The notes under the pieces were generated by a model. That model was not told where the DNA came from and made no database searches. It saw nothing but the letters and a program-made list of their open reading frames with translations. A DNA stretch of 30,586 bases, from the NCBI GenBank assembly GCA_031366735.1, contig JANLOU010000276.1:1-30586 (forward strand), read 5' to 3'. How positions within the stretch are numbered: position 1 is the stretch's first letter; each line of letters opens with the position of its first letter. Shown here in pieces: positions 5,535 through 30,586 of the stretch. Source of the DNA: Candidatus Eiseniibacteriota bacterium. Its GTDB lineage: Bacteria; Eisenbacteria; RBG-16-71-46. The position numbers and the translations under genes were made by a program.

Positions 5535-5551
5535 GGGGGCTCCGGAGTGGG

Positions 5552-8402: not shown

Positions 8403-8454
8403 GCAATGACCTCCGGAGAGTTGTCGGGTTGAGCGGGATCCGATGCTATTGGGA

Positions 8455-8470
8455 TGCAAGGGGGACGCCA
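8455..8470 (-). promoter_or_regulatory. Putative sigma-54 (-24/-12) promoter
   Basis: Minus strand TGGCGTCCCCCTTGCA matches TGGCAC-N5-TTGCW with exact GG/GC spacing, 53 bp upstream of ATG 8402. Confidence 0.55.
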
Positions 8471-14528: not shown

Positions 14529-14583
14529 GGGTCGAGTCCTCTCTGGAGAATCCGCAGGGATGGTGAAAAGTGCCGCCGCGCGG

Positions 14584-15060
14584 CTACTGCCAGGGCGAGA
14601 CCATGAAATAGAGCAGGCCCAGGAACAACGCCAACTGCGCCGCATTGGCCACGCGCCAGCGTCCCAGGGTACCGCCCCATTCCACGGGATCACTGCCGTT
14701 GGGGCCACTGGCTGCCGAACGGGCCAATGCAGCCAGCTTCATGGAGGTCGGCAGGTCCACGGCCAGCGACAGCACCAAGGAGCCCAGCCACAGCCCATTC
14801 ACGATCCGGAACACGGTGGTGGTCTTCATCGAGTAACCCAACTGCATGGCGAGGAAATTGCCGACCAGCCCCAGCCCCAGCAGCGCCGCCAAGCCGAACA
14901 CGACCGAGATGCGTTGATTCAGCTCGAGGAGTGTGGCGCGCACGGTCCAGTCCTTGGCGCGGCGCGCGGCCAACACATTCCAGTGGGTGGCGAACAAGGC
15001 TGCCACGAAAACGAAGGAGAACAGGACATGGGCATACTTCACCCAGGCGATCATCGGCAT
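14584..15060 (-). CDS. Four-helix integral membrane protein, DUF2269-like
   Basis: ATG 15060 with GGAG RBS; four hydrophobic segments; His-containing first helix (KYAHVLFSFVFVA) and LMVxKP-like end (LYFMVSPWQ), typical of DUF2269/CopD-like proteins. Confidence 0.7.
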   Translation of the reverse strand: MPMIAWVKYAHVLFSFVFVAALFATHWNVLAARRAKDWTVRATLLELNQRISVVFGLAALLGLGLVGNFLAMQLGYSMKTTTVFRIVNGLWLGSLVLSLAVDLPTSMKLAALARSAASGPNGSDPVEWGGTLGRWRVANAAQLALFLGLLYFMVSPWQ

Positions 15061-15406: not shown

Positions 15407-18400
15407 TCAGGGCACGCGCACGCGGAAGCTGACGCTGCCCGTCGCGCCGGGGGCCAGGGATCCGGCGAGGGTCCACTCCACCGCCCCGGCGGTCCCCAGT
15501 GTCGGGGAGATCGTCAGCGCACAGCCGGTGATGCCGGCGCCAGGCGCGGCGCAACTGGCGGCATCGAACACCGTCCAGGCTGGCGTGGCGTCGCGGATGA
15601 CGATGTTCGAGAGCGCCGTGTTGCCCGGATTGGTGTAGGTGATCGTGTAGGTGATGTTCTGCCCGGCACGCACGCTGTCGCGGTCCACCGTCTTGGTCAG
15701 CACCAGACCGCTGCTCGAGAGGACCGTGGTGCGATCATCGAGACGCTCGTCCCCACTCAATGCTGGGCTCGCTCCGCTGTAGCTGAACGACGCGGTCAGC
15801 GTGGCCATGCTGCTGGCGCCGCCGGGCGCAGCGACCGGCGAGGTGTGGCGTGCGAGCACACAGACATTCTGGCCCGTGGTCACCGCGAATGGCGCGGTGA
15901 GCAGCGGCTCGCCCGCATCGAGTACGCCATTGCAGTTGAGGTCCCGGTACAGTTCGATGGTCCAACCGGGCAGGCTCGGCGCGAGTGATTGCGTGGCCCC
16001 GAAGCCCACGGTGCCGGCGCTTCCCGCGGTGAAGCGGTGCGCGTACAGGGCAACGCCTCCCGCCACGATGCTGCGTGTCTCGGCGGCCACCCAGGAGTTG
16101 CGTGGCACATCGCCGAATGCGAGCGCCGTGTAGCGGGTGCCGCTCATCGCGGTGAACGCGACGGCATCGCTCGTGCGGTCGTAGGCGCCCCCGGTGCCGC
16201 CCGCACCACCACCGGTCGAGCGCCAGCCACTGGGGTCCTGCTCGGCGATCCGCACGGTTTGGCCCGAGAGCGTGAACGGGGCCCACAGGGTGAACGCGCC
16301 CGCGCCATCCGTGAGCGTCGAGTCGCAGGCGCCGCCAGGGCATGTGCTGTTCGCCAGCCGCATGCGCACTGCGCTCACCGGACCCTCGCCCGCTTGTGGG
16401 GCGCCGTCGTTGGCCGTGCCCCCCGCTGCGCCGTCGTCGCGGAAGACGCGGCCGTCCACGCGACTGCCATGGTAGAGCCCGAAGTCCAGTCCGCTCACAT
16501 CGGTGGCGTTGACCGGCACGGCCACGCGCACGCCACCGGAGACCTCGGTGCCGATCCAGCCCGCGGGATAAGTGGGCAACAGGTCGGCGGCCGAAGCGTC
16601 CTGATCGAGGATCACATCGTAGGCCCCCGCGCTCACGAAAGTGAACGCGTACGCGCCCGTGATGGGATCCACGCTGGTGGTCTGGCGCACGAGCGCGGTG
16701 CCGTTCAACACCAGTTTGGCATACAGGGTCTGAGCGGTTCCGGTCTCGCCCGGGTCGCGCTGGGAGTCGTGGTCCGCGTCGGCGTAGGCAATGCCGTTGA
16801 GGGTCACGCCGGTGGTGACGGCGACGACTCCCGAGAACTCTGAGGTTCCCACGCCGGTGTGGGTTGCGCTCGCGGTGAGCCGGACACCCGCGGCGACGCC
16901 GCTCGGGGCGGGCAGGGTGAAGCGGAATCGATTCGTGAAATCCGTTCCCTGCGCCACGCCGTTCACGCTGCCACTGTACGAACTGGCGCTCGCGTCGAGG
17001 TCAGCCCCCGAGCCTTCGGTGATGCTGGTCACGAAGGTGGCCCCTTCACCGAACGAACTGGCGTCGCCGTCGCTCACGAACACTTCGATGACCGCGCCCG
17101 GGCGGGCCCACCCGCTCACCGTGAAGTTGCCGTTCGCCAGCACCGCGCTCTCGATCACCGGGAAGTTGACGAGCGCATTGCCGCCGGCATCGCCGTCGCC
17201 GTTGTCGTTGAGGGTCACATACGGCGCTGTGCCGAGCGCCGCGTCGTCGGTTGCGCGCTGCAGGTCGATTCCGAGCGTGCCGTTGTCGCGGATGCGATTG
17301 CGCGTGAAAATGTGATTCGCGCCCGCGCTCACCACCACGATGCCCGCGCCGCCCTGATCCGTGATGACGCAGCGATCCACCCGGCTCGCGCTGCCGCCCA
17401 GACGCAGCCCCGCGGTCACTCGCGCCGCGCCACTGCCGCGGCCATTGCGTTGCACATTCACATTCGTGAAGTTGTCGCTGCCCAGTCCGGTGAGCGCGTC
17501 CACCCCCGGCCCGTCATGGTCGGTGATGCGGGAGTTGCTCGCGGTGAGCGTGCCGCTGCTGGCCAGCACGATCGCGCCGAGTGCGGCATTGCCGATCGTA
17601 TTGCCGCGCAGTTCGCAGGTGGTCAGGCTCCAGCTGTTGGACCCCGAGGTGAGCGCCACGCCGCTGCCGGCGCCGTACGCGATGACCGAGCCCACGAGTA
17701 CGCCGTTGTCGCCGCCCAACACGCGCACATGGTCGCCGCCCGAGCGCAGCAACGCGCCCGGGTCGGCGAAGCTCGTGGCGAGCACCCCAAGCGCACACGA
17801 TTCGATCCGCGCGGCGTTCGCGCTGGCTCCCACCCGCACATCCGCGTTGGCATCGCTGCCGACGGAGTTGCCGAATCCCACGATCGCCATGCGCGAGAGC
17901 GTGAGCGAGGCGGCTTGCAGATCGAACCCGAGCGCGAGTCCGGCGCCGTCGCGCACCTCGACTTCGGGTCCGGCGAGCGTGGCGAATGCCACATCGTCGG
18001 CCCCGACAGTCCCGCCGCTGCCCAGCGTGGCCCCGTTCGTATCCCCCACGAGCGAAGTCTGCGTGCCGCCCTCCACGCGCGTGTTGGCGTCGGTCAGCGG
18101 GGGTAGCGTGGACAGCAGGGTGATCCGCACGACGCCGCCGGTGAGCAGGTTCGCGAGTCCCGCGCGAAGCCCCGGGTGGGCTGCGCCATCGCTCACCATG
18201 AACAGCGAGGTCTCCTCGCCGACCGTGCGACCGACCTGTGCAAGGCCCGCGTTGGTGAGGGCATTGGCGTTGAGCAGGAACTGCCGCAGGGAGCCCTGGC
18301 CGGCATCGTTCGCATTCACGATGGTGTCGAAGTTGAAGCCGAAATCGATTCCTGTCACATCGCTCGACCCCAGCGTGACGGGGGCAAGCGACTGCGCGGT

Positions 18401-20320
18401 GAGCGTGGCGGTCGTGAGGCTCGCAAGCGACGCGGCGGACAGATTCAGCCCCGCGTCCGCACGCGCGGGAATCTCGCCGCCCACGCGATCGCCCACCGCC
18501 ACGGCGGTGCCACTGGACGCATCGGTGCGGTAGGTCTGCACCGCCACCAGCGCCGCGACACTCCCGGGGCGCGACGAGGTCACCATGCTGTTGACGACGC
18601 GCACCTGGTAATTGCCTGCCGACCAGCCATCGAAGCTGAACAGTCCGGCCGCATCGGTCGTGTCGGCATCGATCGCGGCGCCGGCGGCGTCATACAACTC
18701 GACCCGCACATTGGGGCGTGCGACGCCGCTCGATGCAACGCGTGAGCGGCCCGAGCCACCGCCGAAGTTCACATCCTCGAACACACTGCCGGTCATGCGC
18801 GACGCGACGACCGTGACGGTCGTGGGCTGCAGCCCGGCAAGGGTGGCGTTCCCGTCGCTGGCCGAGGCGAATGCAACGCCGGATTGTGCGCCCACGAACG
18901 ACAGCCAACCCTGATTGCTGACCACGGTGCCCGTGGGTGCCGGCGCCCGAACGCGGGCGCGGAAGCGCAGGCTGGTGGTGGTGTTGATGTCGATCTGGCC
19001 ACCGGCGGTCGTATTCGCGCCCGTGCCGAGCCGTGCGACGACCGTGCGGGAAGCCGGGACATACTCCATCACATCGTCCCCGCTGGCGTCGGATTTCGCT
19101 CCGGTGTTGGGCCCGGAGAAGATCTGCAGCGATCCCGGTTCGAAGGTGAGGTTGGCCGCCAGCGTGTCACGCATGACGCATTGCGCGGCATGGTCCTGCC
19201 CGGTGTTCCGCATGGTGATGGTGTATTCGAGCAGGTCGCCGGGGCGCACCGAACCACCGTCCAGATCGACCACGGTCTTGGTGAAGTTCGTGGCATCGAA
19301 CACCGGCGCGTACAGGTCGGTCGCGAAGGTGACGACGCCGGGGTAATAGACATCGTTCGAACTGGTCAGGCGGATGTTGGCCGTGGTGGCATTGTTCGCG
19401 AGCAGGCCGTTGGCGCTGACCAGGTCGATGTCGAAGCCAAGCTGATTGATATAGTTGGGATTCTTCGTGGTGATGTGGGCTCCAAGCGCCGAGATGGTCG
19501 AGTTGAAGAAGTTGTCCGCGGGGTTGCGGGCGTCGGTGAGCGAGGTGCCGTTCAACTGGAACGCATCGCCCGTGTAGCCAAGGTCGCCCTCGAACGCGAC
19601 CACGCCCAGGCGCGTGCTCACCGCCCCGGCAGGCGGGGTCAGGAAACCACTCACGGTCATGTTGATGTTCGTGGTGGTGCTGACCGCGCCGAATCCATCG
19701 AACACGACCAGATTGCGCGGAGATTGGGTGGCGTCGCGATACAGCACCACCAGTGACCAGCCAGCATGCTTGTCGGCCGCGCCGGGGGTGGAATACACAT
19801 TCGCCACGCGGTAGGTGCCATTCAAGCCGGCCTGCACCAGCGCGGTCACATCCCGGAACCCCATGTAGTCGGTGGTGCCGGTCAGGTCCAACTGGGTCGC
19901 AGTGAGGGTCGTGTACGCCGCCACCGGCGTCCCGAAACGACAGGTGTTACGCAGCGCGTTCGCCGACTCGCCGCCCCAGTACAGCCCGGCCCATGTCACG
20001 GTGGCGCCCGGCGGCAGCGCCAGGTCCGCCGTACTGGAGGAGAAGGTCGAGGCATCGCCATCGATGTCCACATACTGCATGGTGAAGTCGTTGTCGTTGA
20101 TGCTGCCGCCGGTGCCATTGCGACCATTCGGGCACTGGCCGTTGCCGCTGCACGACATGAGGGTGTTGCCGATCAAAGTGATATCGCCGGACTGATTCGC
20201 ACTGATGCGGGGCGTGAAGCTGCGCACGATCTGCGCGCGGACGGGCGCTGCGGTCGAGAGCAACAGCGCGAACGCCGCGACCACGCCGATCCTGGCCGAA
20301 CGCATGTCGCCCCGGCTCAT
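15407..20320 (-). CDS. Large secreted adhesin: DUF3344-like N-domain, complete DUF11, SdrD-B-like domains, parallel beta-helix, C-terminal truncated DUF11
   Basis: Signal peptide (…STAAPVRA); WAGLYWGG DUF3344-like region; DUF11 FTKTVV…PGDLLEYTITMRNTG…MRDTL; GSVFEDVN and GIAYADAD SdrD-B starts; NANDAGQGSLRQFL followed by a beta-helix; ends LTKTVD…ITYTITYTNPG…IRDATP…VSFRVRVP. ATGA overlap with the upstream gene and GAGGTG RBS. Confidence 0.88.
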   Translation of the reverse strand: MSRGDMRSARIGVVAAFALLLSTAAPVRAQIVRSFTPRISANQSGDITLIGNTLMSCSGNGQCPNGRNGTGGSINDNDFTMQYVDIDGDASTFSSSTADLALPPGATVTWAGLYWGGESANALRNTCRFGTPVAAYTTLTATQLDLTGTTDYMGFRDVTALVQAGLNGTYRVANVYSTPGAADKHAGWSLVVLYRDATQSPRNLVVFDGFGAVSTTTNINMTVSGFLTPPAGAVSTRLGVVAFEGDLGYTGDAFQLNGTSLTDARNPADNFFNSTISALGAHITTKNPNYINQLGFDIDLVSANGLLANNATTANIRLTSSNDVYYPGVVTFATDLYAPVFDATNFTKTVVDLDGGSVRPGDLLEYTITMRNTGQDHAAQCVMRDTLAANLTFEPGSLQIFSGPNTGAKSDASGDDVMEYVPASRTVVARLGTGANTTAGGQIDINTTTSLRFRARVRAPAPTGTVVSNQGWLSFVGAQSGVAFASASDGNATLAGLQPTTVTVVASRMTGSVFEDVNFGGGSGRSRVASSGVARPNVRVELYDAAGAAIDADTTDAAGLFSFDGWSAGNYQVRVVNSMVTSSRPGSVAALVAVQTYRTDASSGTAVAVGDRVGGEIPARADAGLNLSAASLASLTTATLTAQSLAPVTLGSSDVTGIDFGFNFDTIVNANDAGQGSLRQFLLNANALTNAGLAQVGRTVGEETSLFMVSDGAAHPGLRAGLANLLTGGVVRITLLSTLPPLTDANTRVEGGTQTSLVGDTNGATLGSGGTVGADDVAFATLAGPEVEVRDGAGLALGFDLQAASLTLSRMAIVGFGNSVGSDANADVRVGASANAARIESCALGVLATSFADPGALLRSGGDHVRVLGGDNGVLVGSVIAYGAGSGVALTSGSNSWSLTTCELRGNTIGNAALGAIVLASSGTLTASNSRITDHDGPGVDALTGLGSDNFTNVNVQRNGRGSGAARVTAGLRLGGSASRVDRCVITDQGGAGIVVVSAGANHIFTRNRIRDNGTLGIDLQRATDDAALGTAPYVTLNDNGDGDAGGNALVNFPVIESAVLANGNFTVSGWARPGAVIEVFVSDGDASSFGEGATFVTSITEGSGADLDASASSYSGSVNGVAQGTDFTNRFRFTLPAPSGVAAGVRLTASATHTGVGTSEFSGVVAVTTGVTLNGIAYADADHDSQRDPGETGTAQTLYAKLVLNGTALVRQTTSVDPITGAYAFTFVSAGAYDVILDQDASAADLLPTYPAGWIGTEVSGGVRVAVPVNATDVSGLDFGLYHGSRVDGRVFRDDGAAGGTANDGAPQAGEGPVSAVRMRLANSTCPGGACDSTLTDGAGAFTLWAPFTLSGQTVRIAEQDPSGWRSTGGGAGGTGGAYDRTSDAVAFTAMSGTRYTALAFGDVPRNSWVAAETRSIVAGGVALYAHRFTAGSAGTVGFGATQSLAPSLPGWTIELYRDLNCNGVLDAGEPLLTAPFAVTTGQNVCVLARHTSPVAAPGGASSMATLTASFSYSGASPALSGDERLDDRTTVLSSSGLVLTKTVDRDSVRAGQNITYTITYTNPGNTALSNIVIRDATPAWTVFDAASCAAPGAGITGCALTISPTLGTAGAVEWTLAGSLAPGATGSVSFRVRVP

Positions 20321-23300
20321 GGCTGCACCTCGCGTCGGCGCTGGAACAGGGCCTCATCGAACTTCGCGCGCAGGCGCACGAAGCCGCCCTCGCGCGTCCA
20401 CTCGCTTTCGGTCAGTTCGTCATCGTGGTAACCAAAGCGGTTGAAGCCGAACGAGACCCAGACATCTCCCGGCAGCTGCCGCCCCAGTTCGACCCCGAGT
20501 CCCGCCTGACGCTGCGAGAGGCGCCGACCCATCAATGCGCTGGTCGTGAGGGACGCGTCCCAACCCTGCGCCAGGTCGCGCGTCACTCGAGCCTGCACCC
20601 ATTGGGCGCCGCCTGCGCTGAGGAGTCCGGCCGACTGGTCGCGCGTGATCTTGCCGGCCCACGAGAGCGAGGTACGGGTGGCGCGTGCGACCTGCCCAGT
20701 GCCGGAGAACCCCACGATGTTGCTGACGCGCCGAGTGCGCACCGGTCCGGCAGTGCGGTCGTAGCGCAGCTCCCAACGCCCGAGTGCGTCCCATGCATCG
20801 CCGTCGGGCCGGTAGGCGAAGGCCAAGCCCAGTCGTTCCCGTGCCTGACTGCCGCCCACATGCTCGCGGGCCACGAACAACTGGTGGCGGCCGAGCGCGG
20901 TCCACACGGAATCGAGTTTCACGGCGGCCGCCATCGTCTGTAGGAACTGATCACTGGCGCGACTCGTGCGGACTTCGGCGCGCGCGCTGCCCTTCCATAC
21001 CGGGTCGTCCCCGAAGTCCACGCTTCCCGTGAGCGCCGTGGTGGGGCCTGCTGCGAGACCGGCGCCCGCCAATGGGTTCACGCGCTCGAACGAACCGCCG
21101 ACACGCATGCCGCTCGCCAGACGCCAGGCGTTGCGCAGCCCCACGGCAGCCTGCGCCTCGCGCCCTGCGATCGCGTCGTTCATCCGGTACTCACTGAAGA
21201 CATGCGCATCGGTCGCGAGGTCGGCATCCACTCCAAGCACGGTTGCCAGTTGGCGTTGCGACCCGCTCAGCGCCCACGCGCTCGTGAGTGTCGAGGCCAG
21301 TTCGTGCCGCGCGTACAAGCGGCCCCGCTTGGTGAAGCGGTACTCGCCCCCCGTCGCCGCCAGCCGCCGCTGGAACTCGCGCGTGTCCTGCTCGTACTCA
21401 CCGTATCCACTCCATTCCGGATGCCGCGGCCATTGCCCGCTGAGTTTGGCGCGCAAGGAAGCCGTGGCCGTTTCGTTCGCGCGAGCGCGCGACGATCCAT
21501 CGGCCCAACGCGTGCCCAGTTCGCCGCGCCAGGCGCTCGACAGTTGCCGATCCAACGCCAGCAGGAAGCCTTGGCGTTTCTCCTGTCCCAGCGCATCCGC
21601 GCTGAACAGCATCTCGGCGTTGATGCGCGTGCGTTCGGCCAGGCGAAGCGTGATGCGTCCGCCCGCTTCGCTGCGCCCTCCGGTGAGCCCGGCGGACGGA
21701 TTGTCGAATGCCCGCGCCGCCGCCGCGCCCCAGACGCGGCTCTGGATGCGCGCATCCTCATGGGTGAACTCGAGGCGGGTGGCATCGCCTGCCCGTTCGA
21801 ACCGTCGCGTCGCCGCCCATTCGAGTTCCAACAGCGTGCGGGGTCCCAGGTGGGCGGAGGCCACGGCGCCGCGCAGTTCGAGCGGTTGCGAGACATCGTG
21901 GTCGTCCACATAAGTGCCGCCGAGCTCGAGTCGGGGATTCACCCGCAGCCGCGCATCCGCGCCCTGAACCCAGACGGGCTCGCCGCCGGTTTCGGTTTCG
22001 TAGGTGACGCGGATCGAGACCGGATCCAGCTCGGCCGTGACGCTCGGGATCGGGAATCGGAACAGCAAGCGCCCGGTGAGTGACTCGACTTCATAGTCGG
22101 TGAAGCGCTGCTGCGTGCGCGTGCTGATCACCAGTGCGGGCTGGCTGCGGTCGCGCACGAGGATCTCGACGCGCTCGCTGTTCTCCACGAACGGCGCACG
22201 CCCAAGCGCATACGGGCCCGAGATGCCCTGGCCGCGGAACTCCTCGACAGCGCGTGTGGTGCGCGTGCGGCTCGAGAACGCGCGCAGCGTATTGCCGTCG
22301 GCGCTCCAACGGGCTTCCGCCCCGGTCAGGCTGCGGCCGAAGTTCGCCAGGGACCGACCCGAGGCGCTGGTGGTGAAATCGCCGTAGCCCAGCGTCGCGT
22401 CGCGTCGTTCGAGGCGCGCATACAGGTGGCCTGCAGACTGCGCGTCATAGCCCCGAACCGCGGCGTCGCCGAACACCGGGTAGCCGCGGTCGGGCTGTTG
22501 GTCGCGGAACAGCCGCGCTGCGGCGTCGCGGTCGGAGTCGTAGCCGAGCGTGAGTTGCATGTCGTCCCGCACGCGGCCCTTCATGAAGAAGGCGCCGTGG
22601 GCGGCGGCGCTGGCCCGGCCATCGACGCGCTGCGACAGGAACTGCGAGATCGGCGCTTCGAACCCCGCACGCGGAATGCCGCGCACGGCGCCGCCGCGTC
22701 GGGACAGGTTCTGCATGGACAGCACGCCCTCGAGCGCGCCCACCGCAAGCAGCGGTCGCAGATCGGGAACGAACTGCACATTCACCATGGTGCGGGTCTC
22801 GCCGCTGACCGCGGTGACATGGGCAGCCCCCGGTTGCTCCGGCGAGATGAGCCCCACGCGAAGCGCGCCGTCCTCGACCGCAACCTGCACGCCGGGCGTG
22901 GCAGGATCGAGGTCCTCGGATGCGAGGCGACCCAGCGAACTCTCCAGCGTGACAAGTGTGCGCGCTCCCACCGGCACGCCCGCAGCATCGGTCACCCGCA
23001 ACAAAAGTGAGGCGATCGCGCGGCCATCGGCACGCGTGCTGCGCGGCGCCAACAGATCGAGCCGAGCAAAGGGTCCCGGAGCCACGAGCCGCAGGGCCAC
23101 GCGCCCGACCGAACGGGGTGGCGCGACCTCGAGCACATTGAGCCCGGGGCGCAAAGTGACGCCGACATACTCCCAGGCCTCGAGTCCAGCGCGCGGCGCG
23201 CTCAGACGCTGCCCGACGCGCGATTCGGGCAAGGTGCGACCGTTGACGCGCAGCGCCAGCGTGGTGCCGAGCCGACCCTTGACGCGCACCGCGATCTGGT

Positions 23301-25677
23301 TCGAGGTCACGGTGTCCAGATCCGCCAGCCCGACGAAGCCCAGGTCCGAGTCGAGTGTATCCATGAGCCGATCGAGGGTGACCGCAACCGGTGCGTCGGC
23401 GCTGGCCGAAGCCGGTTGCGCGTCGATGCGCGGATCGGCGACGGGCAGCGCGCCTTCGCCCGTCAGGATGCGAGCGGCTGGCAACGAGCGCGGGTCGCCC
23501 AACGGGGCTGGGTCGCGCGGGTCGGCGGCGCGGGCCAGTGCGTGGTTGCGCTCGTCGCGGGTGTGCGCCGCGGCACGACGCTCGCCGGCCTCGCGCAGCG
23601 AAGTGGTGTCGCCCGCCACAGCGAAGTCCGCGCGCATCAGCTCCCCGCGCGAGCAGTCGATGAAGCGCAACCCTGCGCGCTGCCCGTCACGCCGGTCGGT
23701 GACGACAGGGTGCGTCATGGGAGGCAGCGTCGTGGCGTCGATCTTGAGGGCGTGGGTGCGCGGGGTGATGCCGGCGAAGCTGTAGCGGCCATGCTCGTCG
23801 GTCACTGCGTAACTGCCGTCGTCCAGATACAGCCGTACGCCCGCGAGTCCAAGCGTGCCAGCCGAGGCGAAGCCATCCGCAGCCCGCCCGCTCGTCCCGG
23901 CGGCGAGCGTCACGCTTCCGACGATCGAGCCCTCGGTGGCGAAGGCGTCGCCGCGCACCTCCACGCGCGCGGTGGCATCGTTGGAGCGTGCGTTGCCGGC
24001 CTCGGCCCACGCGGTATTGATCGCCACTCCCTCGGGGGCTCCGGGCGTGATCCGAACGCGATAGGTGATGCGCACATCGCTGCGCGGCGCCAGCGCGCCG
24101 AGCGCAAAGGTGAGCGCGGGCCCTGCGCCTGTGGGATCCGTCAACGCCGCCCCGTCGCGGCGTGCGGTGCCGGACACATAGGCGAAGCCCGCGGGCAGGG
24201 CGTCGCGCATGCGGACCGGCGCGAGCGTGCTGTCGGAACGGTTCGCCAGACGGACTTCGTAATCGAGCAGGTCGCCCACTTCGGCGCTGGAGCGCGAGGC
24301 GCGTTTCTCGGCGAACAGGGCCACGGGCGAAAGGTCATCCACGGGGATGTCGAGTCGCACGGGGGACAGCGGGTCGGTGAGCACGAACGGTCCGCCGTAG
24401 CTCGCCGCGGCATCCAGCAGGTGGCCTGCGGGCAGTTGCGCGAACGGGACGAGCGAGGGGAAGCGATAGGGTGCGACTGGCGTCACCACCACGCGATAGC
24501 TGCTCGGGGGCACGAGCGGGAAGCGGAATCCGCCATCGGTTGCGGTGAACACTTCGGCCGGGGCGGGCGTGACCCCGTCCGAATCGAGCACGCGGGCCAG
24601 CGCTCCGGGTTGGCCGCCATTACCGGCGCCAGTCAGGTCGATCAACTGCACGCGCGCGCCCGCCACCGGAGCGTCGCTGCGAGCATCGAACACCACGCCC
24701 TGAGATTCGACCCAGGCATTGGCACGCGTCTCGGTCGCGCCGCAACCCGCGAGCACCGCGGTCAGTTGATCCCCGCGCAGTTGCGTGACGACGCCGTCGT
24801 AGTTCTGCGCCGCAGTGGTGAGCGCGCTGGTGGTTGGCGCACCGGGCAGGATGCGGAAGACGCCCGTGCTGGCGCCCGTCTCCACCGCCGCGAAGCTGTC
24901 GGCGTCGCCGGTCAGGAGCGAATGGATTGTGACCAGCACGGTATCGGGCTGTGTGAAATCACGGTTGCACTGCGGCGCGTTCGCTTGCACATACAACGGC
25001 GCCCCGAGCGCGGTGATGCTCGTGGGAGTGCCGTAGGTGTCCGAGGCGTAGAATCCCAGATTCGGGCCGCCCGGCAGGAGCAGCGTACCGAGCGAATCGC
25101 GAACGCTGCTCGACCCGCCACCATCGAGGCGATCCGCCGTCAGCGTCAGTCGCGCGCGCGACAGGCTTGGCGCGGTGATCGGGACGGCCAGGTCGAGCAG
25201 GAGTTCCGCGGTGGCGCCGCCCGCCAGTGTGAGCGTGCCGCCATTGGCGATCGGGGTGTCGAGTGCGCCAAGGGCGCCGTCGCCATCGCGGTCGTGCGTG
25301 AGCGTAAAGCCGCTGACATCGAAGCCGTCGCCTGCCAGATTCGCAGCCGTCAGTCGGATCTCGGCCGGACTATTACCAAGGTTGGTGAGCGTGTGGCGCA
25401 GTCGCACCGAGGCGCCGGGCATGACCTGCGCGTAGCGTTCGGGGGTGAGCGATAGCCCCAGTGTGGATTGCACGATCGCGCTCACGGTGTTGCTCGTGAG
25501 CGTGATCGCGCCAGCGCCCAATGGGAGCATGGCGGTCGCGCCCGCGGTGTTCACGATCGGAGTTCCTGCCGGGGGGGCTGCAAAAGATCGTCCGGTCAGC
25601 ACAAGACCCGCCAGTCCCATGACCGAAGTCATGAGCATGGCGGGGAGACGCCGAGACTTCGCCGTCCGCTTGTGCAT
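20317..25677 (-). CDS. Large outer-membrane protein: N-terminal DUF11 donor fragment, Ig/carboxypeptidase-regulatory-like, DUF11, SdrD-B, invasin-like Ig, C-terminal beta-barrel of about 800 aa
   Basis: Signal peptide; QGVVFDARSDAPVAGARVQL; complete DUF11 (AEKRAS…VGDLLDYEVRLAN…MRDALP…INTAW); GVRLYLDDGSYAVTDEHGRYSF; ADGRAIASLLLRVTD; then long alternating amphipathic strands ending GGFVRLRAKFDE. Confidence 0.85.
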   Translation of the reverse strand: MHKRTAKSRRLPAMLMTSVMGLAGLVLTGRSFAAPPAGTPIVNTAGATAMLPLGAGAITLTSNTVSAIVQSTLGLSLTPERYAQVMPGASVRLRHTLTNLGNSPAEIRLTAANLAGDGFDVSGFTLTHDRDGDGALGALDTPIANGGTLTLAGGATAELLLDLAVPITAPSLSRARLTLTADRLDGGGSSSVRDSLGTLLLPGGPNLGFYASDTYGTPTSITALGAPLYVQANAPQCNRDFTQPDTVLVTIHSLLTGDADSFAAVETGASTGVFRILPGAPTTSALTTAAQNYDGVVTQLRGDQLTAVLAGCGATETRANAWVESQGVVFDARSDAPVAGARVQLIDLTGAGNGGQPGALARVLDSDGVTPAPAEVFTATDGGFRFPLVPPSSYRVVVTPVAPYRFPSLVPFAQLPAGHLLDAAASYGGPFVLTDPLSPVRLDIPVDDLSPVALFAEKRASRSSAEVGDLLDYEVRLANRSDSTLAPVRMRDALPAGFAYVSGTARRDGAALTDPTGAGPALTFALGALAPRSDVRITYRVRITPGAPEGVAINTAWAEAGNARSNDATARVEVRGDAFATEGSIVGSVTLAAGTSGRAADGFASAGTLGLAGVRLYLDDGSYAVTDEHGRYSFAGITPRTHALKIDATTLPPMTHPVVTDRRDGQRAGLRFIDCSRGELMRADFAVAGDTTSLREAGERRAAAHTRDERNHALARAADPRDPAPLGDPRSLPAARILTGEGALPVADPRIDAQPASASADAPVAVTLDRLMDTLDSDLGFVGLADLDTVTSNQIAVRVKGRLGTTLALRVNGRTLPESRVGQRLSAPRAGLEAWEYVGVTLRPGLNVLEVAPPRSVGRVALRLVAPGPFARLDLLAPRSTRADGRAIASLLLRVTDAAGVPVGARTLVTLESSLGRLASEDLDPATPGVQVAVEDGALRVGLISPEQPGAAHVTAVSGETRTMVNVQFVPDLRPLLAVGALEGVLSMQNLSRRGGAVRGIPRAGFEAPISQFLSQRVDGRASAAAHGAFFMKGRVRDDMQLTLGYDSDRDAAARLFRDQQPDRGYPVFGDAAVRGYDAQSAGHLYARLERRDATLGYGDFTTSASGRSLANFGRSLTGAEARWSADGNTLRAFSSRTRTTRAVEEFRGQGISGPYALGRAPFVENSERVEILVRDRSQPALVISTRTQQRFTDYEVESLTGRLLFRFPIPSVTAELDPVSIRVTYETETGGEPVWVQGADARLRVNPRLELGGTYVDDHDVSQPLELRGAVASAHLGPRTLLELEWAATRRFERAGDATRLEFTHEDARIQSRVWGAAAARAFDNPSAGLTGGRSEAGGRITLRLAERTRINAEMLFSADALGQEKRQGFLLALDRQLSSAWRGELGTRWADGSSRARANETATASLRAKLSGQWPRHPEWSGYGEYEQDTREFQRRLAATGGEYRFTKRGRLYARHELASTLTSAWALSGSQRQLATVLGVDADLATDAHVFSEYRMNDAIAGREAQAAVGLRNAWRLASGMRVGGSFERVNPLAGAGLAAGPTTALTGSVDFGDDPVWKGSARAEVRTSRASDQFLQTMAAAVKLDSVWTALGRHQLFVAREHVGGSQARERLGLAFAYRPDGDAWDALGRWELRYDRTAGPVRTRRVSNIVGFSGTGQVARATRTSLSWAGKITRDQSAGLLSAGGAQWVQARVTRDLAQGWDASLTTSALMGRRLSQRQAGLGVELGRQLPGDVWVSFGFNRFGYHDDELTESEWTREGGFVRLRAKFDEALFQRRREVQP

Positions 25678-25794
25678 CCGTGCCGTCCCTTTGGGGAATC
25701 GCGAGCGCCGCGGGAGCCAGGCCAGGGTCCCGGCCCATCCGCGACGTCGCGGTTCAGCAGTGCGTTCCCGCGCCGATGGGCCGCGGTCCCTGCT

Positions 25795-25825
25795 CGAGGC
25801 GGGAGCCGTGCAGGCTCCCGCCTCG
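25795..25825 (-). terminator. Perfect 13-bp hairpin just after the 876-aa gene (mRNA stabiliser or partial terminator)
   Basis: CGAGGCGGGAGCC-N5-GGCTCCCGCCTCG, 8 bp downstream of the stop at 25834; no U-tract. Confidence 0.7.
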
Positions 25826-25833
25826 CAGGTTCA

Positions 25834-28464
25834 TCAGGGGTAGTCGATCCGGACGTTGAAGCGGATGACCGCGGACTGGCCGGGTCCGAGCACGCCGATG
25901 TTGGCCGTGACCACACCCGCCGACCCGTTGGCCGGCACCGTGATGGTGCCCACCGAGGTCGAAGCGGAGACCAAGTTCGACGAGGTCGTGTTGGCCGGCG
26001 TCGCGTCATTGATCACCACCGCGGTCACCGGCGTGGAGCCGATGTTCGTGACGGTGATTTCGTAACGGATGCAAGCCCCCGGAATCGCGCCGGTCGTGAG
26101 GTTCAGCGAAGTGAAGGCCGCGTCCTCGATGCCGTTGCAGTCCCCGTCCAGCGCCTGCCGCTTGCTGATCGTGAGCTGCCCGTTGATGACCGTCGTCCCA
26201 TCGGTGGCCTGAACCAGCGCCGGCACCGGATTGGTGAAGGCGACGTTCGAGGTCGTGGCCGAGATCGTCGTGGTGTTCAGCTGGCCCAGCGGGGCGCCGG
26301 CCGGTGAGAACACCTGCACGAACAAGCGCACACTGGCGCCCGGTGCGAGTCCACCCGCGGCGGACAGATCCGAGAGCGGCGCATCGCCGACATCGTAGAC
26401 ACCACTGCCGTTCGCGTCCCAGTACACAGCCGAACTCCAACCCGCCTGATCATCGGCACGCGAGATGGCGATGAAGCTGCCGACGGCGTTGCCTTCCGTG
26501 ACATTGCCCGTGTTCGACAGCAGGTGGGCATACACCACGAACCCGCCGGGAATCACCTGGGCCGAGTTGTTCGGCACGAGTGCGAGCGAGCGCACGACAT
26601 TCACACCTACCGCATCGTGGATGCGGTCCGCAGAGCCCGACACAGCCGAACGAGCGCGGAAGTACAGCGCCACATCGCCGGCGGGAGTGCCATTGGCCAC
26701 GAACACATCGGCGTACACGAGCGAGTTGCCGCCCGCAGCGATCGCCCCGGTCGAAGTGATGACCGAGTTGGCCGCGTCGCGGAAGGTGACCGTCCAGCCC
26801 GCCGGCAACGACAGCGCGCCAAACGTGTTGTCCGTGCTCGCTGTCATCGCGAAGTTATCCGCCTGAGCGCTGGTGTTGTTCACGACGAGCGTGAAGCGCG
26901 TGGTGGTTCCGGGGTTGGTGGTATTGCGGATCACGGCGATGGCCTCAGGACCTGCACCCGCGCCCGGGGCACCCGGTAGCGGCGTGTTGTTCGTGAGGTC
27001 GACCGTGTTCGCGGTGATCAGCGTGAGCACATCCGTCGCGGTGCGCGACACGCCCGGGTTGGAGACCGAGGTGGCGACCTTATCGACGGAGTACGGCCCG
27101 CCGGTGGCACCGGTCGGCAGCGTCACCTTGAGGATCACGCTGTACGAGGCACCCGAGGCGAGTGGACCCGTGTCCGGGATCCCGTTGGCATTGGTGTCGT
27201 TCAGCAATGCGACACCGTTGCTCTGGTAGAGCTGGTAGGTCCAACCCGCCGGGAAAGTGGCCGTCAGCGTGTTCACGGCGATATCGAACACATCCGAGCC
27301 ATTGCCCGTGTTCACGAGCTGGTTCGTGAAGGTCACCGTCGAACCCTGCAGCGCGCTGGCGATGGTCTGGCCCGTGAAGGAGAACGTCACCGCCTGATTC
27401 ACCGTGAATGGCGCCAGGTTGGTGAAGAACGGTCCCACATTGCCGGCGCCGTCGTTGTAGGCATAACGCGCTGAGTTGTTGATTGTCTGCGGCGCGAGCG
27501 CGGCCGAGACATTCACTTGGAAGGTGAGGCTGCCCGACTGGCCAGAAGGGATGTTATTGATCTGCGCGGTGACCGCACCCGCCGTGGCGATGTTGTAGTC
27601 GAACCGCACGGTGTTCGGGTTGATGCCCTGCGCATCGGTGCTGTCGGCATCGGTCAGCGGCGTGCCGGCGCCCGTTGCGCTCCAGCGTGCACTGCCCGGC
27701 ACATAGGTCATGCCGGCTGGGATGACGTCCGTGATGCGCAGCGCGCTCGCGGCGGCATTACCCGAGTTGGTATAGCTGATGGTGTAGGTCCGCGGGCCGC
27801 TCGGCGAGGCGCCGTTCGACTGATCGATGCCCTTGGTCACGCTGAGCACCGCGTTGCCCGTGACCGTGACGACATCCGTGTTGAACGCGGTCTGGGTGTT
27901 GTCGAAGCTGCTGAGCGCCGAGATCCGCACGCGCGAGAGGTCGCCGCCCACTTGCGTGCCGGGGACGGATCCGACCACGACGAAGCGGTACGCCGCGCCC
28001 GGAGCGAGCGACGGCGTGACGAGCACCGGCGTGAAGTTGTCCGGAACGCCATTGCCATTCGCGTCGATGTAGATGGCGAGGCCCGTGAGGTCGAAGTTGT
28101 CACCCGCCAGATTCGCCAGCGTGAGCGGGAATGTGTCGGCGCCGTTACCCACGTTCGTCAGGATGTGCGGGAACGAGGCCTGGCCACCCGGGGCAGCCGT
28201 GCGCGCACCGTCGGCGGTGAGCGTGAAGCTCGCCACCTGCTGCACGATGGTGGTCACCGGATTCGAAGTGATGGTGTAGCTGTTCGAGGCGGCGTCGGTA
28301 TAGGTCGCCGTCGCGCGATTGCCGATGGGCGTGCCGGCCGGCGGCGCGGCATGAGCTGGCGTCACCGTACCGGTGAGCGTCAGGACCGCGCACGCGACGG
28401 CAATGCCGGTCGTGAGCGGGGACAGGAGGCGCTGGCGGATGCCAGCAAGCTTCGCGGCGTTCAT
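25834..28464 (-). CDS. Secreted DUF11/Ig-repeat protein (predicted fibre shaft subunit)
   Basis: ATG 28464 (GGAG RBS, 7-nt spacer); signal peptide ending PAHA; four Ig-like repeats with L.N.GN..D.F and DxNxNG loops; one complete DUF11 (VTKGID…ITDVIP…INNSA); C-terminal truncated DUF11 (ISKRQ…INDATP…IRFNVRIDYP). Confidence 0.88.
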   Translation of the reverse strand: MNAAKLAGIRQRLLSPLTTGIAVACAVLTLTGTVTPAHAAPPAGTPIGNRATATYTDAASNSYTITSNPVTTIVQQVASFTLTADGARTAAPGGQASFPHILTNVGNGADTFPLTLANLAGDNFDLTGLAIYIDANGNGVPDNFTPVLVTPSLAPGAAYRFVVVGSVPGTQVGGDLSRVRISALSSFDNTQTAFNTDVVTVTGNAVLSVTKGIDQSNGASPSGPRTYTISYTNSGNAAASALRITDVIPAGMTYVPGSARWSATGAGTPLTDADSTDAQGINPNTVRFDYNIATAGAVTAQINNIPSGQSGSLTFQVNVSAALAPQTINNSARYAYNDGAGNVGPFFTNLAPFTVNQAVTFSFTGQTIASALQGSTVTFTNQLVNTGNGSDVFDIAVNTLTATFPAGWTYQLYQSNGVALLNDTNANGIPDTGPLASGASYSVILKVTLPTGATGGPYSVDKVATSVSNPGVSRTATDVLTLITANTVDLTNNTPLPGAPGAGAGPEAIAVIRNTTNPGTTTRFTLVVNNTSAQADNFAMTASTDNTFGALSLPAGWTVTFRDAANSVITSTGAIAAGGNSLVYADVFVANGTPAGDVALYFRARSAVSGSADRIHDAVGVNVVRSLALVPNNSAQVIPGGFVVYAHLLSNTGNVTEGNAVGSFIAISRADDQAGWSSAVYWDANGSGVYDVGDAPLSDLSAAGGLAPGASVRLFVQVFSPAGAPLGQLNTTTISATTSNVAFTNPVPALVQATDGTTVINGQLTISKRQALDGDCNGIEDAAFTSLNLTTGAIPGACIRYEITVTNIGSTPVTAVVINDATPANTTSSNLVSASTSVGTITVPANGSAGVVTANIGVLGPGQSAVIRFNVRIDYP

Positions 28465-28593
28465 GTTCACACTCCGAGGGTTTGGTGTGGACGTGACGAT
28501 TGCTCATGGAGTCGCGCGCGTCCGATGTCAGGGCCGGAAAGGCCATGACGGGACCCGGCGGTTTCGATGGAGGTCGGCGAGAGCGGCGACGCT

Positions 28594-29100
28594 CTAGCGG
28601 GTGTTCGCAGCCACCGCGATCGGCGTGACGCGCACGCGCGCCGTCACCGTGCAGGCCTGCTTCGCGGCCAGCGTGCCAACGGCCCAACGCAGGAAGCGGT
28701 ACTGCGACGCGGGAATCTCGCGAATCACTTCGCGCCCGTCCGCCGTGCGTTCCTTGCGTGTGAGCGGAACGGCGGCATACGAAACGCCGTCGAGGCTCGC
28801 GAACACCACCGTGGGAGCCGCGGTGCGGGGCAGGTACTCGACACCGGCCGGGATCGGCAGCGTGGCCAACAACTGGCGCACGGCACGCTTCCCATCATTC
28901 GTGTAGACGGCACGGTATTCGAGGATCTCGCCGGGCTTGGCCTGTGCGGCCGAGGCGAGGACTTCACGGTTGTTCGTCATGGTCACGCGAGCCGCTTGGA
29001 GCGTGACATGGACATCGCCGTCGGCATACGCCAGTACCGGAGCAAGAAACGCCACGGTCACGAATGCGCACGCAAGGGTGCGCTGGATGATGCGATGCAT
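28594..29100 (-). CDS. Small secreted single truncated-DUF11-like protein
   Basis: ATG 29100 with GGAGG RBS; signal peptide (…PVLAYA); AKPGEILEYRAVYTNDG…LPIPAGVEY…LRWAVGTLAAKQACTVTARVRV. Confidence 0.85.
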   Translation of the reverse strand: MHRIIQRTLACAFVTVAFLAPVLAYADGDVHVTLQAARVTMTNNREVLASAAQAKPGEILEYRAVYTNDGKRAVRQLLATLPIPAGVEYLPRTAAPTVVFASLDGVSYAAVPLTRKERTADGREVIREIPASQYRFLRWAVGTLAAKQACTVTARVRVTPIAVAANTR

Positions 29101-29319
29101 CGCCGAAACCTCCCTGGTGGGTCCGATGAAGCGGACGGACACAATCGGTTCGCGTCGACGCGGACTGCGCCCACGTTCACCGTTCCTAGGCGAGGCACCG
29201 GCGGATCAGAGAAGCGGAAGCGAGATGTGTCACCCGACGCTATGGCTGAGGGGCCAGAAGCCGGGAGTCGGATGCCTGCCACGGTGTGCATCGGCAGGTG
29301 GCCCCCGCCAACTTGAGCG

Positions 29320-29395: not shown

Positions 29396-29881
29396 TCAGG
29401 CCGCCGCGCGCCCCGCCAATCCGCGGCGGTACACCGTGAGCCGGCAGGTGACGGGCCCGAGCGACAGTTCGACGGTGGCCGTTTCCATGTCGCCCGCCGG
29501 CGTGATCGGTCGTGGGATGAACATGGGCAGCCCCAGGCGCAGCGTCTCGCCGCGACTGGCCATCCTGGACTTCACTTTACCGGCCACGATGTTCATCACT
29601 TCGCTCACGCCATCGACCATATCCTTCTCCGACAAGGTGTCGTGCGAGCCCATTCCCAGCAACGCGCGGGCCAACAGGTAGCATTCCTGAGAGGACATGC
29701 ACAGGCCCAGGTGGATGCTTTCCGACTCGCTCAGGATCGCGATGTAAGCGCCAGGGCGTTCGCCCGTGTCCTTGGCGGGAGTGGGCTTGTTCTCGAAGCG
29801 CCGGGATCCCTGCGCGAAGTCGTCGGCCGCACCCCGGAAGGTGTCGAGCCAGTCCTGAATCGGAATCACGCGGCTTTCCAT
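29396..29881 (-). CDS. cheX: CheX/CheC-family chemotaxis phosphatase
   Basis: DGVSEVMNIVAG matches the D-x3-E-x2-N-x3-G phosphatase motif; LGLPMFI; about 160 aa; overlaps the cheR end. Confidence 0.8.
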   Translation of the reverse strand: MESRVIPIQDWLDTFRGAADDFAQGSRRFENKPTPAKDTGERPGAYIAILSESESIHLGLCMSSQECYLLARALLGMGSHDTLSEKDMVDGVSEVMNIVAGKVKSRMASRGETLRLGLPMFIPRPITPAGDMETATVELSLGPVTCRLTVYRRGLAGRAAA

Positions 29882-30586
29882 CGGTTCGCCTCCTCGAGGG
29901 TTTTCGGGCGCGGGCGGTGGATGACCGTCCTGCCCTGATTCATGGGTTCGAAGGAATCATCCATGGTGAGCGTGGTCTCGCCACCTCCCAGCACCAGCCC
30001 CCCATCGGGCGCGAGCGCGCCGTGCAACTGGCGCAATACGCGTCGGCGCGTGGAGGTGTCGAAGTAGATCAACACATTCCGCATGAGCACGAGATCGACC
30101 GGGGGCAGTATCGGCCACGGGCCGGTGAGGTTCAGTTCGCGGAACTCGACCATGGCGCGCACATCGTCCCGAATGCGCCACTCATTGCGATCCTTGCGGA
30201 AGTAGCGCACAAGCAGTGGCGCCGCCAGACCGCGATTCATCTCGATCTGGCTGTACTCGCCATCGCGCGCGCGGCGCAACATCGTGGTGCTGAAATCGGT
30301 CGCCAGGAGCGTGACCTTCCACTCGAACAGCGCCGGGAAGTGCTCGCGCAGCATCATCGCCAGGCTATAGGGCTCCTGCCCACTCGCGCACGCCGCACTC
30401 CAGATGCGAAGTTCGCGCGTCGCGGCGCGGCGTTGCAGTAGTTCAGGGATCCACAGGGTTCGCAGCGCGTCCCAAGTGTGCAGGTCACGGAACCAGGAGG
30501 TCTCGCAGACCGCCAGCGATTCCACCACCAGCCGGTGGAGCACGCCCCAGGCCTCCTCGGTGCGCAGCGCATCCATGACATGCGAG
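29866..30586 (-). CDS. cheR: CheR chemoreceptor methyltransferase (5' partial)
   Basis: ETSWFRD, LRIWSAACASGQEPYS, ATDFS, MRNVLIYF, LVLGGGE. The frame stays open past 30576 to the window end. Confidence 0.93.
   Translation of the reverse strand, partial: SHVMDALRTEEAWGVLHRLVVESLAVCETSWFRDLHTWDALRTLWIPELLQRRAATRELRIWSAACASGQEPYSLAMMLREHFPALFEWKVTLLATDFSTTMLRRARDGEYSQIEMNRGLAAPLLVRYFRKDRNEWRIRDDVRAMVEFRELNLTGPWPILPPVDLVLMRNVLIYFDTSTRRRVLRQLHGALAPDGGLVLGGGETTLTMDDSFEPMNQGRTVIHRPRPKTLEEANRWKAA

Follow-up and report, generated by a model that had tools for sequence, protein, structure and literature searches.

A four-gene cassette from an uncultured Eisenbacteria species encoding predicted surface-fibre subunits that share a split DUF11 (CLIPPER) domain

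The window, by which the whole analysed stretch of 30,586 nucleotides is meant, contains a cassette of four neighbouring ORFs on the minus strand, and comes from an uncultured sediment bacterium whose genome is 97.7% complete. In order, the genes encode a small secreted protein (28594..29100; 168 aa from an ATG), a shaft subunit (25834..28464; 876 aa, with its ATG at 28464 and an in-frame GTG at 28470), a barrel or base protein (20317..25677; 1786 aa) and a tip adhesin (15407..20320; 1637 aa), the ATG of the last overlapping the stop codon of the barrel gene as ATGA. A sequence-only reading of the same DNA had named these ORFs, the residues of a Lys/Asp/Asn triad and three complete DUF11 domains, and all of them were confirmed when the sequence, the ORFs and the Pfam and NCBIfam matches were checked.

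The shaft protein consists of about six Ig-like domains with an N-terminal donor segment and a C-terminal acceptor domain. The acceptor (25837..26190, minus strand, residues 761-878) is a truncated DUF11 domain that carries Lys770 (codon 26161-63), Asp822 (26005-07) and a Cys778/Cys800 pair, and the chain ends 3-4 residues past its F.V.I strand. The donor (28237..28347, minus strand, residues 42-78, with Asn51 at 28318-20) forms the mature N-terminus after a signal peptide ending AHA/A, the slash marking the cleavage site, and is followed immediately, with no linker, by the first Ig domain. It is the best-conserved part of the protein, which has over 1200 homologues of similar length (about 870 aa), and can be aligned with complete DUF11 domains over their back half. 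The sequence-only reading had the position of this segment and its Asn right; a small correction is that its approximately 37 residues are modelled as four short strands and not as one. A G+C-rich hairpin of 13 bp (25795..25825, minus strand) lies 8 nt past the shaft stop codon. It has no U tract, and strong hairpins of differing sequence occur at the same spot in loci L001, L002 and L004. It is possible that this is an intercistronic element that raises shaft levels over those of the barrel protein and adhesin. In chaperone-usher pili, too, a hairpin lies 3' of the major subunit gene.

The barrel protein comprises a signal peptide, a donor, an Ig-like stalk with one complete DUF11 domain and an outer-membrane barrel of about 810 aa at the C-terminus (20320..22749, minus strand, about residues 977-1786). 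Its donor (25468..25578, minus strand, residues 34-70, with Asn43 at 25549-51) is the mature N-terminus after SFA/A and begins with the same conserved motif as the shaft donor; neither signal peptide has a lipobox Cys. The protein contains no truncated acceptor. An AF2 model of residues 900-1786 (pLDDT 86.9, pTM 0.82) has a barrel of roughly 38-40 strands into which a small beta domain is inserted. A Foldseek search of the PDB with this model returned only generic large barrels (SlpA, LptD, BtuB, FimD, MtrB and SprA) with TM scores of only 0.14-0.25, and the barrel therefore has no solved homologue. Pfam scans of six barrel relatives, taken singly, gave only generic porin and OMP signals and no usher model at E values up to 1. 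One AFDB neighbour of the barrel (TM 0.69, 17% identity) bears the automatic name 'usher'.

The adhesin features a DUF3344-like head, a complete isopeptide-type domain, SdrD_B domains, a beta-helix and a C-terminal acceptor (15410..15715, minus strand, residues 1536-1637) with Lys1543 (15692-94) and Asp1577, and it lacks a donor. At other loci, adhesins with unrelated heads have an identical acceptor ending. The small protein consists of just one acceptor domain, a truncated one of the DUF11 type, which gives a weak DUF11/TIGR01451 match over profile positions 8-86 of 114. It contains Ala in the column of the triad Lys and Leu or Thr in that of the Asp, and exactly these two residues are lost in its relatives across all lineages.

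Complete DUF11-type domains are recognised by Pfam and NCBIfam at residues 209-337 of the shaft, 457-567 of the barrel protein and 344-470 of the adhesin, the last being matched as RrgB_K2N_iso_D2. Scores for the shaft, barrel protein and adhesin are 48.5, 38.4 and 62.6 bits with DUF11 (PF01345; cut-off 24.6) and 54, 37 and 82 bits with TIGR01451. In both the shaft and the adhesin, the C-terminal DUF11 match reaches only profile position 84-86 of 114, where the stop codon cuts it off; that of the adhesin covers positions 2-84 and ends right after the F.V.V strand. When the C-terminal domain was fused to the mature N-terminus in 120 homologues and compared by hhalign with the shaft's own complete domain, the joined acceptor and donor proved collinear with it and ungapped over the cut (probability 96.8%, E 2.9e-10). 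The profile stop and this alignment together uphold the earlier suggestion that the domain is cut at one exact junction. When the window's complete domains are aligned by MAFFT with the joined ones, each of the three triad residues occupies one column. The donor motif occurs just twice in the 3.6-Mb genome, both times within the cassette and directly past the signal-peptidase site, and DUF11 is essentially absent from the genome outside the cassette. Further donor-like matches within barrel proteins were considered as extra donors and rejected, as they are the back halves of ordinary complete domains. Judged from the sequences, the split pattern is far beyond chance expectation.

Complex prediction covered one pairing, that of the shaft acceptor with the shaft donor, and gave an ipSAE of 0.78 against 0.00 for the best control. 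Of 80 solved complexes, 58 reach this level, as do 2 of 110 mismatched pairs; this calibration is only approximate here because the alignments used were our own, and a high score is expected of any natural split domain regardless of whether its halves meet in trans in the cell. K770, D822 and N51 are all among the predicted interface residues. The pLDDT of the acceptor is 83-86 with the donor compared with 65-66 with unrelated partners, and that of the donor is 33 when the acceptor is absent. The modelling supports docking of the two halves into one domain, as the sequence-only reading had predicted, and its controls are clean. The C-terminal domains might instead be self-folding short DUF11 variants, with the N-termini forming part of their own first Ig domains and the proteins acting separately, and Ig-like domains do tolerate the loss of an edge strand. 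We consider this very improbable, given that the joined halves are collinear with complete domains, that each half is modelled poorly without the other, that the donor is restricted to cassette proteins, and that the position of the cut is identical in hundreds of genomes.

Because the domain halves lie on different secreted proteins, these proteins probably plug together; for the adhesin, which has an acceptor with invariant Lys and Asp but no donor, and the barrel protein, which has an Asn-bearing donor but no acceptor, complementation in trans is forced. The arrangement that we favour, and regard as reasonably probable, is that the four genes form a surface-fibre cassette in which subunits connect when one split CLIPPER (DUF11, CnaA-like) domain is made whole between proteins. 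The acceptor, a C-terminal domain ending after the F.V.V strand, would contribute the catalytic Asp and the strand with the Lys, and the donor would supply the last four short strands and the Asn, bared as the mature N-terminus by signal peptidase. The adhesin acceptor would receive a shaft donor, and the shaft acceptor would receive the donor of either a further shaft or the barrel protein, so that a fibre may contain more than one shaft. The barrel protein, as a donor only, would anchor the chain in the outer membrane.

Relatives of the barrel protein form 2821 clusters at 50% identity and are found in at least 596 species genomes from many phyla, including Proteobacteria, Gemmatimonadota, Nitrospirota, Verrucomicrobiota and Acidobacteriota, as well as Abditibacteriaceae. 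Within the Eisenbacteria, the cassette is found amid differing neighbour genes. A survey of 80 loci, with denominators that vary with the presence of complete genes or enough flanking sequence, detected an N-terminal donor in 50 of 52 complete barrel proteins from other genomes and a shaft ending in a truncated acceptor in 44 of 46 loci; an orthologue of the small protein precedes the shaft gene in 44 of the 46 loci with enough flank. An acceptor-only gene was found directly downstream in only 21 of 58 loci, using a narrow acceptor profile, and in Moraxellaceae it is located upstream instead. The division into donor-only, donor-plus-acceptor and acceptor-only proteins, for which the sequence-only reading had proposed a search across genomes, is retained in many phyla and in distant clusters with barrels only 42-43% identical.

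The same numbers of donors and acceptors would balance equally well in a one-to-one tether, in which the barrel donor takes the adhesin acceptor directly and the shaft is either self-closed or a single spacer, giving a stalk of fixed length and no pilus of variable length. The AF2 monomer of the shaft (mean pLDDT 84.5) has its donor in strand conformation (pLDDT 70-83) and a confident C-terminal domain, as docking in cis predicts, and this model is as compatible with cis as with trans docking. Three Rosetta-stone relatives (P0184, P0264 and P0272), in which the same adhesin head and barrel form a single chain and which also favour the proposed fibre, are themselves of fixed length, and several donor-strand systems have self-complemented precursors, such as the 'closed form' of TafA (PMC11821415). 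However, the direct passage of the donor into the first Ig domain resembles a continuous stalk, and with no linker, closure in cis would require six rod-forming domains to form a ring. An irreversible isopeptide in cis would also be a dead end for the best-conserved gene of the cassette. Moreover, the motif that opens both the shaft and barrel donors is a shared one, and the strong hairpin past the shaft gene suggests an excess of shaft. On balance, a tether of this kind seems unlikely, and chain assembly through shaft subunits is preferred.

In the proposed fibre, the junctions are probably locked by a spontaneous Lys-Asn isopeptide, since docking, as modelled, brings the three triad residues together again. 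In a complete CLIPPER domain such a bond does form, with Asp as the catalyst, although some DUF11 domains lack the full triad or the bond (PMC12617251). The latter fact is in keeping with another possibility, namely that the subunits are held by non-covalent donor-strand complementation in the manner of chaperone-usher or type V pili, the triad being ancestral or kept for packing and no interchain isopeptide being formed. The predicted docking is equally in line with this, and oligomers of BsaA are SDS-stable even without their isopeptide (PMC11580942). It is nevertheless difficult to reconcile with the split domains across phyla, in which the triad is essentially invariant while the remaining domain is variable: the acceptor Asp is preserved in 84 of 84 sequences and the donor Asn in 54 of 55 barrel and 46 of 46 shaft donors (100 of 101 together). 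Furthermore, it is precisely the Lys and Asp that have been lost from the small protein, the one acceptor for which reversible binding would be expected. A purely non-covalent fibre thus appears distinctly unlikely.

The small protein is a candidate for capping or chaperoning the donor segments in the periplasm, and within the locked fibre proposed here, an acceptor that lacks Lys and Asp probably holds donors reversibly before assembly. The barrel of about 40 strands is probably also the exit route for the Sec-exported shaft and adhesin. Export by the T9SS was considered, as three neighbouring genes encode a Por_Secre_tail, and was rejected, as the fibre proteins lack that tail.

The closest known relative of the split domain is CLIPPER itself, represented by the structure of the Acinetobacter silvestris fibrillar adhesin B9T28_05395 (PDB 9IFR; PMC12617251). 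Both belong to the common DUF11 family, have the Lys/Asp/Asn triad in the same order and serve as stalk modules of diderm surface adhesins. In CLIPPER, however, the triad lies within one chain of a single-polypeptide adhesin with an OmpA-like anchor, whereas in the terminal domains of the shaft and adhesin the Asn half is the N-terminus of another polypeptide; the cut parts the F.V.V strand from that of the Asn, and any bond formed would link separate molecules. A sequence search of PDB chains with both acceptor domains yielded no significant match (all E above 0.05), and 9IFR was not among the hits. SpyTag/SpyCatcher and related engineered pairs are similar in that the larger part contains Lys and an acid, the smaller contains Asn or Asp, and docking restores the bond. 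They were made in the laboratory by dividing CnaB-type domains of Gram-positive adhesins, whereas the cassette would contain a natural, CnaA-like split that builds a structure.

The cassette resembles chaperone-usher pili in its acceptor-only tip adhesin, with the acceptor as the C-terminal domain, its donor-only last subunit, its outer-membrane barrel at the base and its polarity, with the tip first and the N-terminal extension facing distally; the likeness in docking is one observed in silico (the ipSAE contrast and the collinear profile alignment). It differs in that the donor is four strands rather than one, an isopeptide triad is present at the junction, the barrel doubles as the base subunit, and the subunits are multidomain proteins of 876-1786 aa. 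Membership in this class was rejected: the genome has no match to a PapD-like chaperone (PF00345) or an usher (PF00577), the TM score to FimD is only about 0.2, and the small protein is DUF11-like. Sortase pili share the covalent fibre, the multidomain pilins with isopeptide-stabilised Ig-like domains and the tip, shaft and base subunits, but require a sortase, an LPXTG signal, a pilin-motif Lys and peptidoglycan anchoring, all of which are missing here. The genome contains no sortase (PF04203) match, as the sequence-only reading had supposed for a sortase-free fibre, and the proteins, which end in a truncated domain, carry neither LPXTG nor a hydrophobic tail, so that this class was likewise rejected. 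Type V pili (FimA and Mfa1 of Bacteroidota) have lipoprotein precursors, proteolysis of an N-terminal strand and a C-terminal donor strand, and were excluded on account of the N-terminal donors and the signal peptides of the cassette. Type Va autotransporters also place a passenger before a barrel, although theirs has 12 strands (PF03797); no autotransporter model matched the much larger barrel described here, and this assignment too was rejected.

Donor strands combined with intermolecular isopeptides have already been described in the archaeal threads of Saci_0406 (PMC9715654) and in BsaA of C. perfringens, of the TasA family (PMC11580942). As is proposed for the cassette, these systems 'exchange and lock' with a donor bared by Sec signal-peptide cleavage and an apparently spontaneous isopeptide, which joins Asn57 to the N-terminal amino group of subunit n+2 in the threads (PMC9715654) and involves an Asn-Glu-Lys triad in BsaA (PMC11580942). 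The folds are unrelated, and both are homopolymers of cells without an outer membrane, with no barrel anchor and no dedicated tip. Pfam and NCBIfam searches of the cassette proteins returned only DUF11-clan, SdrD_B, NEW3, CarboxypepD_reg and beta-helix models, with no homology to Saci_0406 or to TasA/BsaA. Two other candidate precedents were set aside: the Litorilinea DUF11 filament is one unsplit chain of 6596 aa, and the matches to haloarchaeal 'tafi' concern DUF1102. While the docking (as a prediction), the distribution pattern, the triad and the lack of a sortase, usher and PapD chaperone were supported, the earlier statement that this assembly logic had never been described was overstated in view of the threads and BsaA. 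Literature searches returned no account of a split DUF11/CLIPPER fibre; what is new in the cassette is that a CLIPPER domain is split, that this occurs in a diderm and that the anchor is a giant barrel.

Taken further, and with some hesitation, the cassette may define a new class of covalent pilus in diderms, distributed over hundreds of species that range from Eisenbacteria to Acinetobacter and Moraxella. Natural tag and catcher halves would form a polymer from tip to base that exits through the barrel and is then crosslinked to it, without a sortase or chaperone-usher pair, and a dead acceptor would serve as an inverse chaperone, shielding donors rather than grooves. If the junctions do lock, this would constitute a further route to surface fibres in diderms beside the chaperone-usher, type IV, type V and curli systems, and the barrel would be the first outer-membrane protein covalently joined to its own fibre through a self-catalysed bond. 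It would also raise the question of how a barrel of this size passes folded or crosslinked Ig-like domains, and would offer natural, co-evolved tag/catcher pairs for protein engineering. The carriers include the culturable genera Acinetobacter, Moraxella and Variovorax. Finally, a fibre of this kind would explain a cassette whose proteins, across all of these species genomes, have so far been annotated merely as 'DUF11 repeat proteins'.

The DUF11 domain is genuinely split between proteins of a cassette of four co-directional minus-strand genes at 15407-29142. In order, these encode a small secreted protein (28594-29100, counted from its ATG), the 876 aa shaft (25834-28464), the 1786 aa barrel protein (20317-25677) and the 1637 aa adhesin (15407-20320), whose ATG overlaps the barrel gene stop codon. 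The longest shaft ORF begins at a GTG at 28470, but the start used in all homologues, as in the database copy, is the ATG at 28464, two codons later, which gives the 876 aa protein. Pfam and NCBIfam recover complete DUF11-type domains at residues 209-337 of the shaft and 457-567 of the barrel protein, and a third at residues 344-470 of the adhesin that is matched as an RrgB isopeptide D2 model, in agreement with the three complete domains of the sequence-only reading, whose residues and coordinates were all correct on re-checking. An extra DUF11 match at the extreme C-terminus of both the shaft and the adhesin (the acceptor) covers the profile as far as position 84-86 of 114, where the stop codon cuts it off. 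Once the signal peptide is removed, the shaft (from A42, after AHA) and the barrel protein (from A34, after SFA) both open with the motif that comes after the F.V.V strand in complete domains (the donor).

Joined end to end in 120 shaft homologues, the C-terminus and N-terminus gave an hhalign alignment with the internal complete domain of the same proteins that was ungapped over the junction (probability 96.8%, E 2.9e-10). The Lys, Asp and Asn of the isopeptide triad each occupy one alignment column across all domains in the window. Across the 3.6-Mb assembly the donor motif is found at two sites, both in the cassette, to which DUF11 is essentially restricted in this genome. The profile ends, the hhalign comparison and the confinement of the donor motif uphold the earlier proposal that one domain has been cut at a single junction, with its halves on different proteins. 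Each acceptor also contains a cysteine pair (778 and 800 in the shaft, invariant among homologues; 1590 and 1600 in the adhesin), which suggests, from sequence, a disulfide in an oxidising compartment.

Complex prediction with the shaft acceptor (alignment A1) and donor (alignment A2), a check proposed in the sequence-only reading, predicts docking, with an ipSAE of 0.78 (three runs: 0.82, 0.78 and 0.71) versus 0.00 for all three controls. When the tool was calibrated, 58 of 80 solved complexes scored this high, as did 2 of 110 mismatched pairs; these figures are a rough guide here because custom alignments were used, and a high score is expected for any cut natural domain. The confident interface contains all three triad residues, comprising acceptor residues 12-18 (Lys770 is 16), 59-69 (Asp822 is 68) and the C-terminal 121-124, and donor residues 8-19 (Asn51 is 10). 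Acceptor confidence is ~85 with the donor versus ~65 with unrelated partners, and donor confidence drops to 33 without the acceptor; the truncated domain is therefore not modelled as a finished fold alone.

The arrangement is preserved well beyond this genome. Within the Eisenbacteria, the source of the closest named homologues, there are more than 1200 shaft relatives, all of ~870 aa, in which the donor is the best-conserved stretch, K770, D822 and N51 are invariant, and the four genes remain together although their neighbors differ. A search with the barrel domain returned 2821 clusters at 50% identity; at least 596 species-representative genomes contain a relative, and these come from many groups, including Beta- and Gammaproteobacteria (among them Variovorax, Polaromonas, Acinetobacter, Moraxella osloensis and Alkanindiges), Geobacteraceae, Gemmatimonadota, Nitrospirota, Verrucomicrobiota, Acidobacteriota and Abditibacteriaceae. 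Two clusters whose barrels are only 42-43% identical to that of the window also comprise these four parts, with the domain cut at the same position.

The counts that follow come from 80 fetched loci. A signal peptide and donor begin 50 of 52 complete barrel genes, and a directly adjacent gene ends exactly at the truncated acceptor in 44 of the 46 loci with enough upstream DNA; a narrow profile also detects an N-terminal donor in 38 of these 44 genes. An acceptor-only gene lies downstream in 21 of 58 loci, and upstream instead in Moraxellaceae. The pattern of donor-only, donor-plus-acceptor and acceptor-only proteins, whose conservation the earlier reading set as a check, is maintained in distant clusters. 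The acceptor Asp is invariant (84/84 domains, the Lys strand being visible in all 84), and the donor Asn is found in 54 of 55 barrel donors and 46/46 shaft donors. The small protein, present in 44 of 46 loci, retains the fold and break point, but throughout has Ala or another residue at the Lys position and lacks the Asp. In the two distant clusters with 42-43% barrel identity, unrelated adhesin heads precede the same C-terminal acceptor, which suggests exchangeable tips; heads at 9154-11883 and 18093-24626 of the homologous loci L004 and L005 differ, with DUF8293 in one and DUF7933 and a HYDIN-like Ig domain in the other. An OmpA-family gene inserted between the L005 barrel and adhesin genes (16816-18096) may tie the system to peptidoglycan.

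The window DNA is high-GC (65-71% G+C), comes from an uncultured bacterium and was found again in freshwater-sediment metagenomes. On one side the cassette is flanked by CheR and CheX genes; on the other come genes for a DUF2269 membrane protein, for three large secreted proteins with T9SS tails and for arginine biosynthesis. The arginine-biosynthesis genes (including argininosuccinate synthase-like and ArgR-like ORFs) and CheX/CheR genes, at 1-5560 and 29396-30586, are considered outside the system because homologous cassettes have different neighbors. The three adjoining secreted proteins (5721-8459, 8627-11917 and 11919-14708, minus strand) are probable T9SS cargo; two have C-terminal PPC and Por_Secre_tail/FlgD_ig domains, and the remaining one, a reprolysin-like metalloprotease, carries FG-GAP repeats. 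The fibre proteins have Sec signals but lack the T9SS tail of these neighbors.

AF2 models residues 900-1786 of the barrel protein confidently (pLDDT 86.9, pTM 0.82): an Ig-like domain comes first, and ~38-40 long strands follow, with a small beta domain as an insert. Against this model, solved large barrels (SlpA, LptD, TonB-dependent transporters, FimD, MtrB and SprA) reach TM of just 0.14-0.25, and relatives give generic porin/OMP signals in Pfam. The nearest AlphaFold-DB cluster, A0A841I056 (1048 aa, TM 0.69, 17% identity), is auto-named 'Outer membrane usher protein', but the barrels here match no usher model, so this label could be an annotation error or could reflect a very distant link. 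Three independent clusters of single-chain relatives (P0184, P0264 and P0272; 2321-4482 aa) carry the DUF3344-like head of the window adhesin at the N-terminus and the barrel at the end, and their sequences indicate that split and unsplit fibre versions coexist in nature. This backbone linkage argues that head and barrel are linked via the split domain in the window cassette, and that the barrel protein N-terminus is the distal, exposed end.

Neither the adhesin nor the barrel protein carries the other half of the domain, so the adhesin acceptor and barrel protein donor must be completed in trans. The fibre would run from adhesin through shaft(s) to barrel protein. There would be several shafts per fibre, a proposal supported by a strong G+C-rich hairpin of 13 bp (25795-25825) that lacks a U tract and lies immediately behind the shaft stop codon, a position shared with hairpins of different sequence in the homologous loci L001 (~12617-12650) and L002 (~12623-12651). 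A one-to-one tether with a single or self-closed shaft, which this hairpin does not favor, seems unlikely, although the AF2 shaft monomer (pLDDT 84.5, pTM 0.46), with the donor as four strands, does not distinguish cis from trans docking. Junctions would lock by a Lys-Asn isopeptide, given the triad invariance, the loss of the triad in the small-protein acceptor, where binding is expected to be reversible, and the published complete-domain chemistry (K715/D748/N806, PDB 9IFR; PMC12617251). Non-covalent complementation would also fit the predicted docking, but in view of the triad is distinctly improbable. Joining of the four proteins in trans through the split domain, with a covalent lock, is the reading we hold to be reasonably likely. 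Given the Sec signals and missing T9SS tail, shaft and adhesin may be exported via the giant barrel, and the small protein could be a donor-shielding chaperone or cap. The earlier interpretation is supported in part. The split, the complementarity of the halves and the conservation of the gene arrangement and of the triad are established in silico, while the fibre order, covalent lock, shaft number, export route and chaperone role are still proposals.

The cassette domains belong to the CLIPPER/DUF11 family, but the terminal copies lack its one-chain feature. The cassette resembles chaperone-usher pili in working and probable polarity, yet lies outside that family; PapD, usher and sortase were all absent from the 97.7%-complete genome. 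Type V pili were rejected as a match, as there is no lipobox and the donors are N-terminal. The earlier claim that this assembly logic was undescribed is too strong, because a donor strand is already combined with an apparently spontaneous intermolecular isopeptide in two systems: Sulfolobus threads, where Asn57 is joined to the N-terminal amine of subunit n+2 (PMC9715654), and C. perfringens BsaA, where mutation confirmed the N35/E56/K74 triad (PMC11580942). No description of a cassette-type fibre was found in the literature searched, which covers few subscription journals. New here are a CnaA-like isopeptide domain that is split in nature and put to use in diderm bacteria, a barrel protein as the base to which the fibre is predicted to be covalently joined, and an accessory protein whose acceptor is dead. 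Fibres that pair donor strands with an isopeptide lock are already known as a kind, and the cassette encodes a probable fibre system that is widespread yet unannotated.
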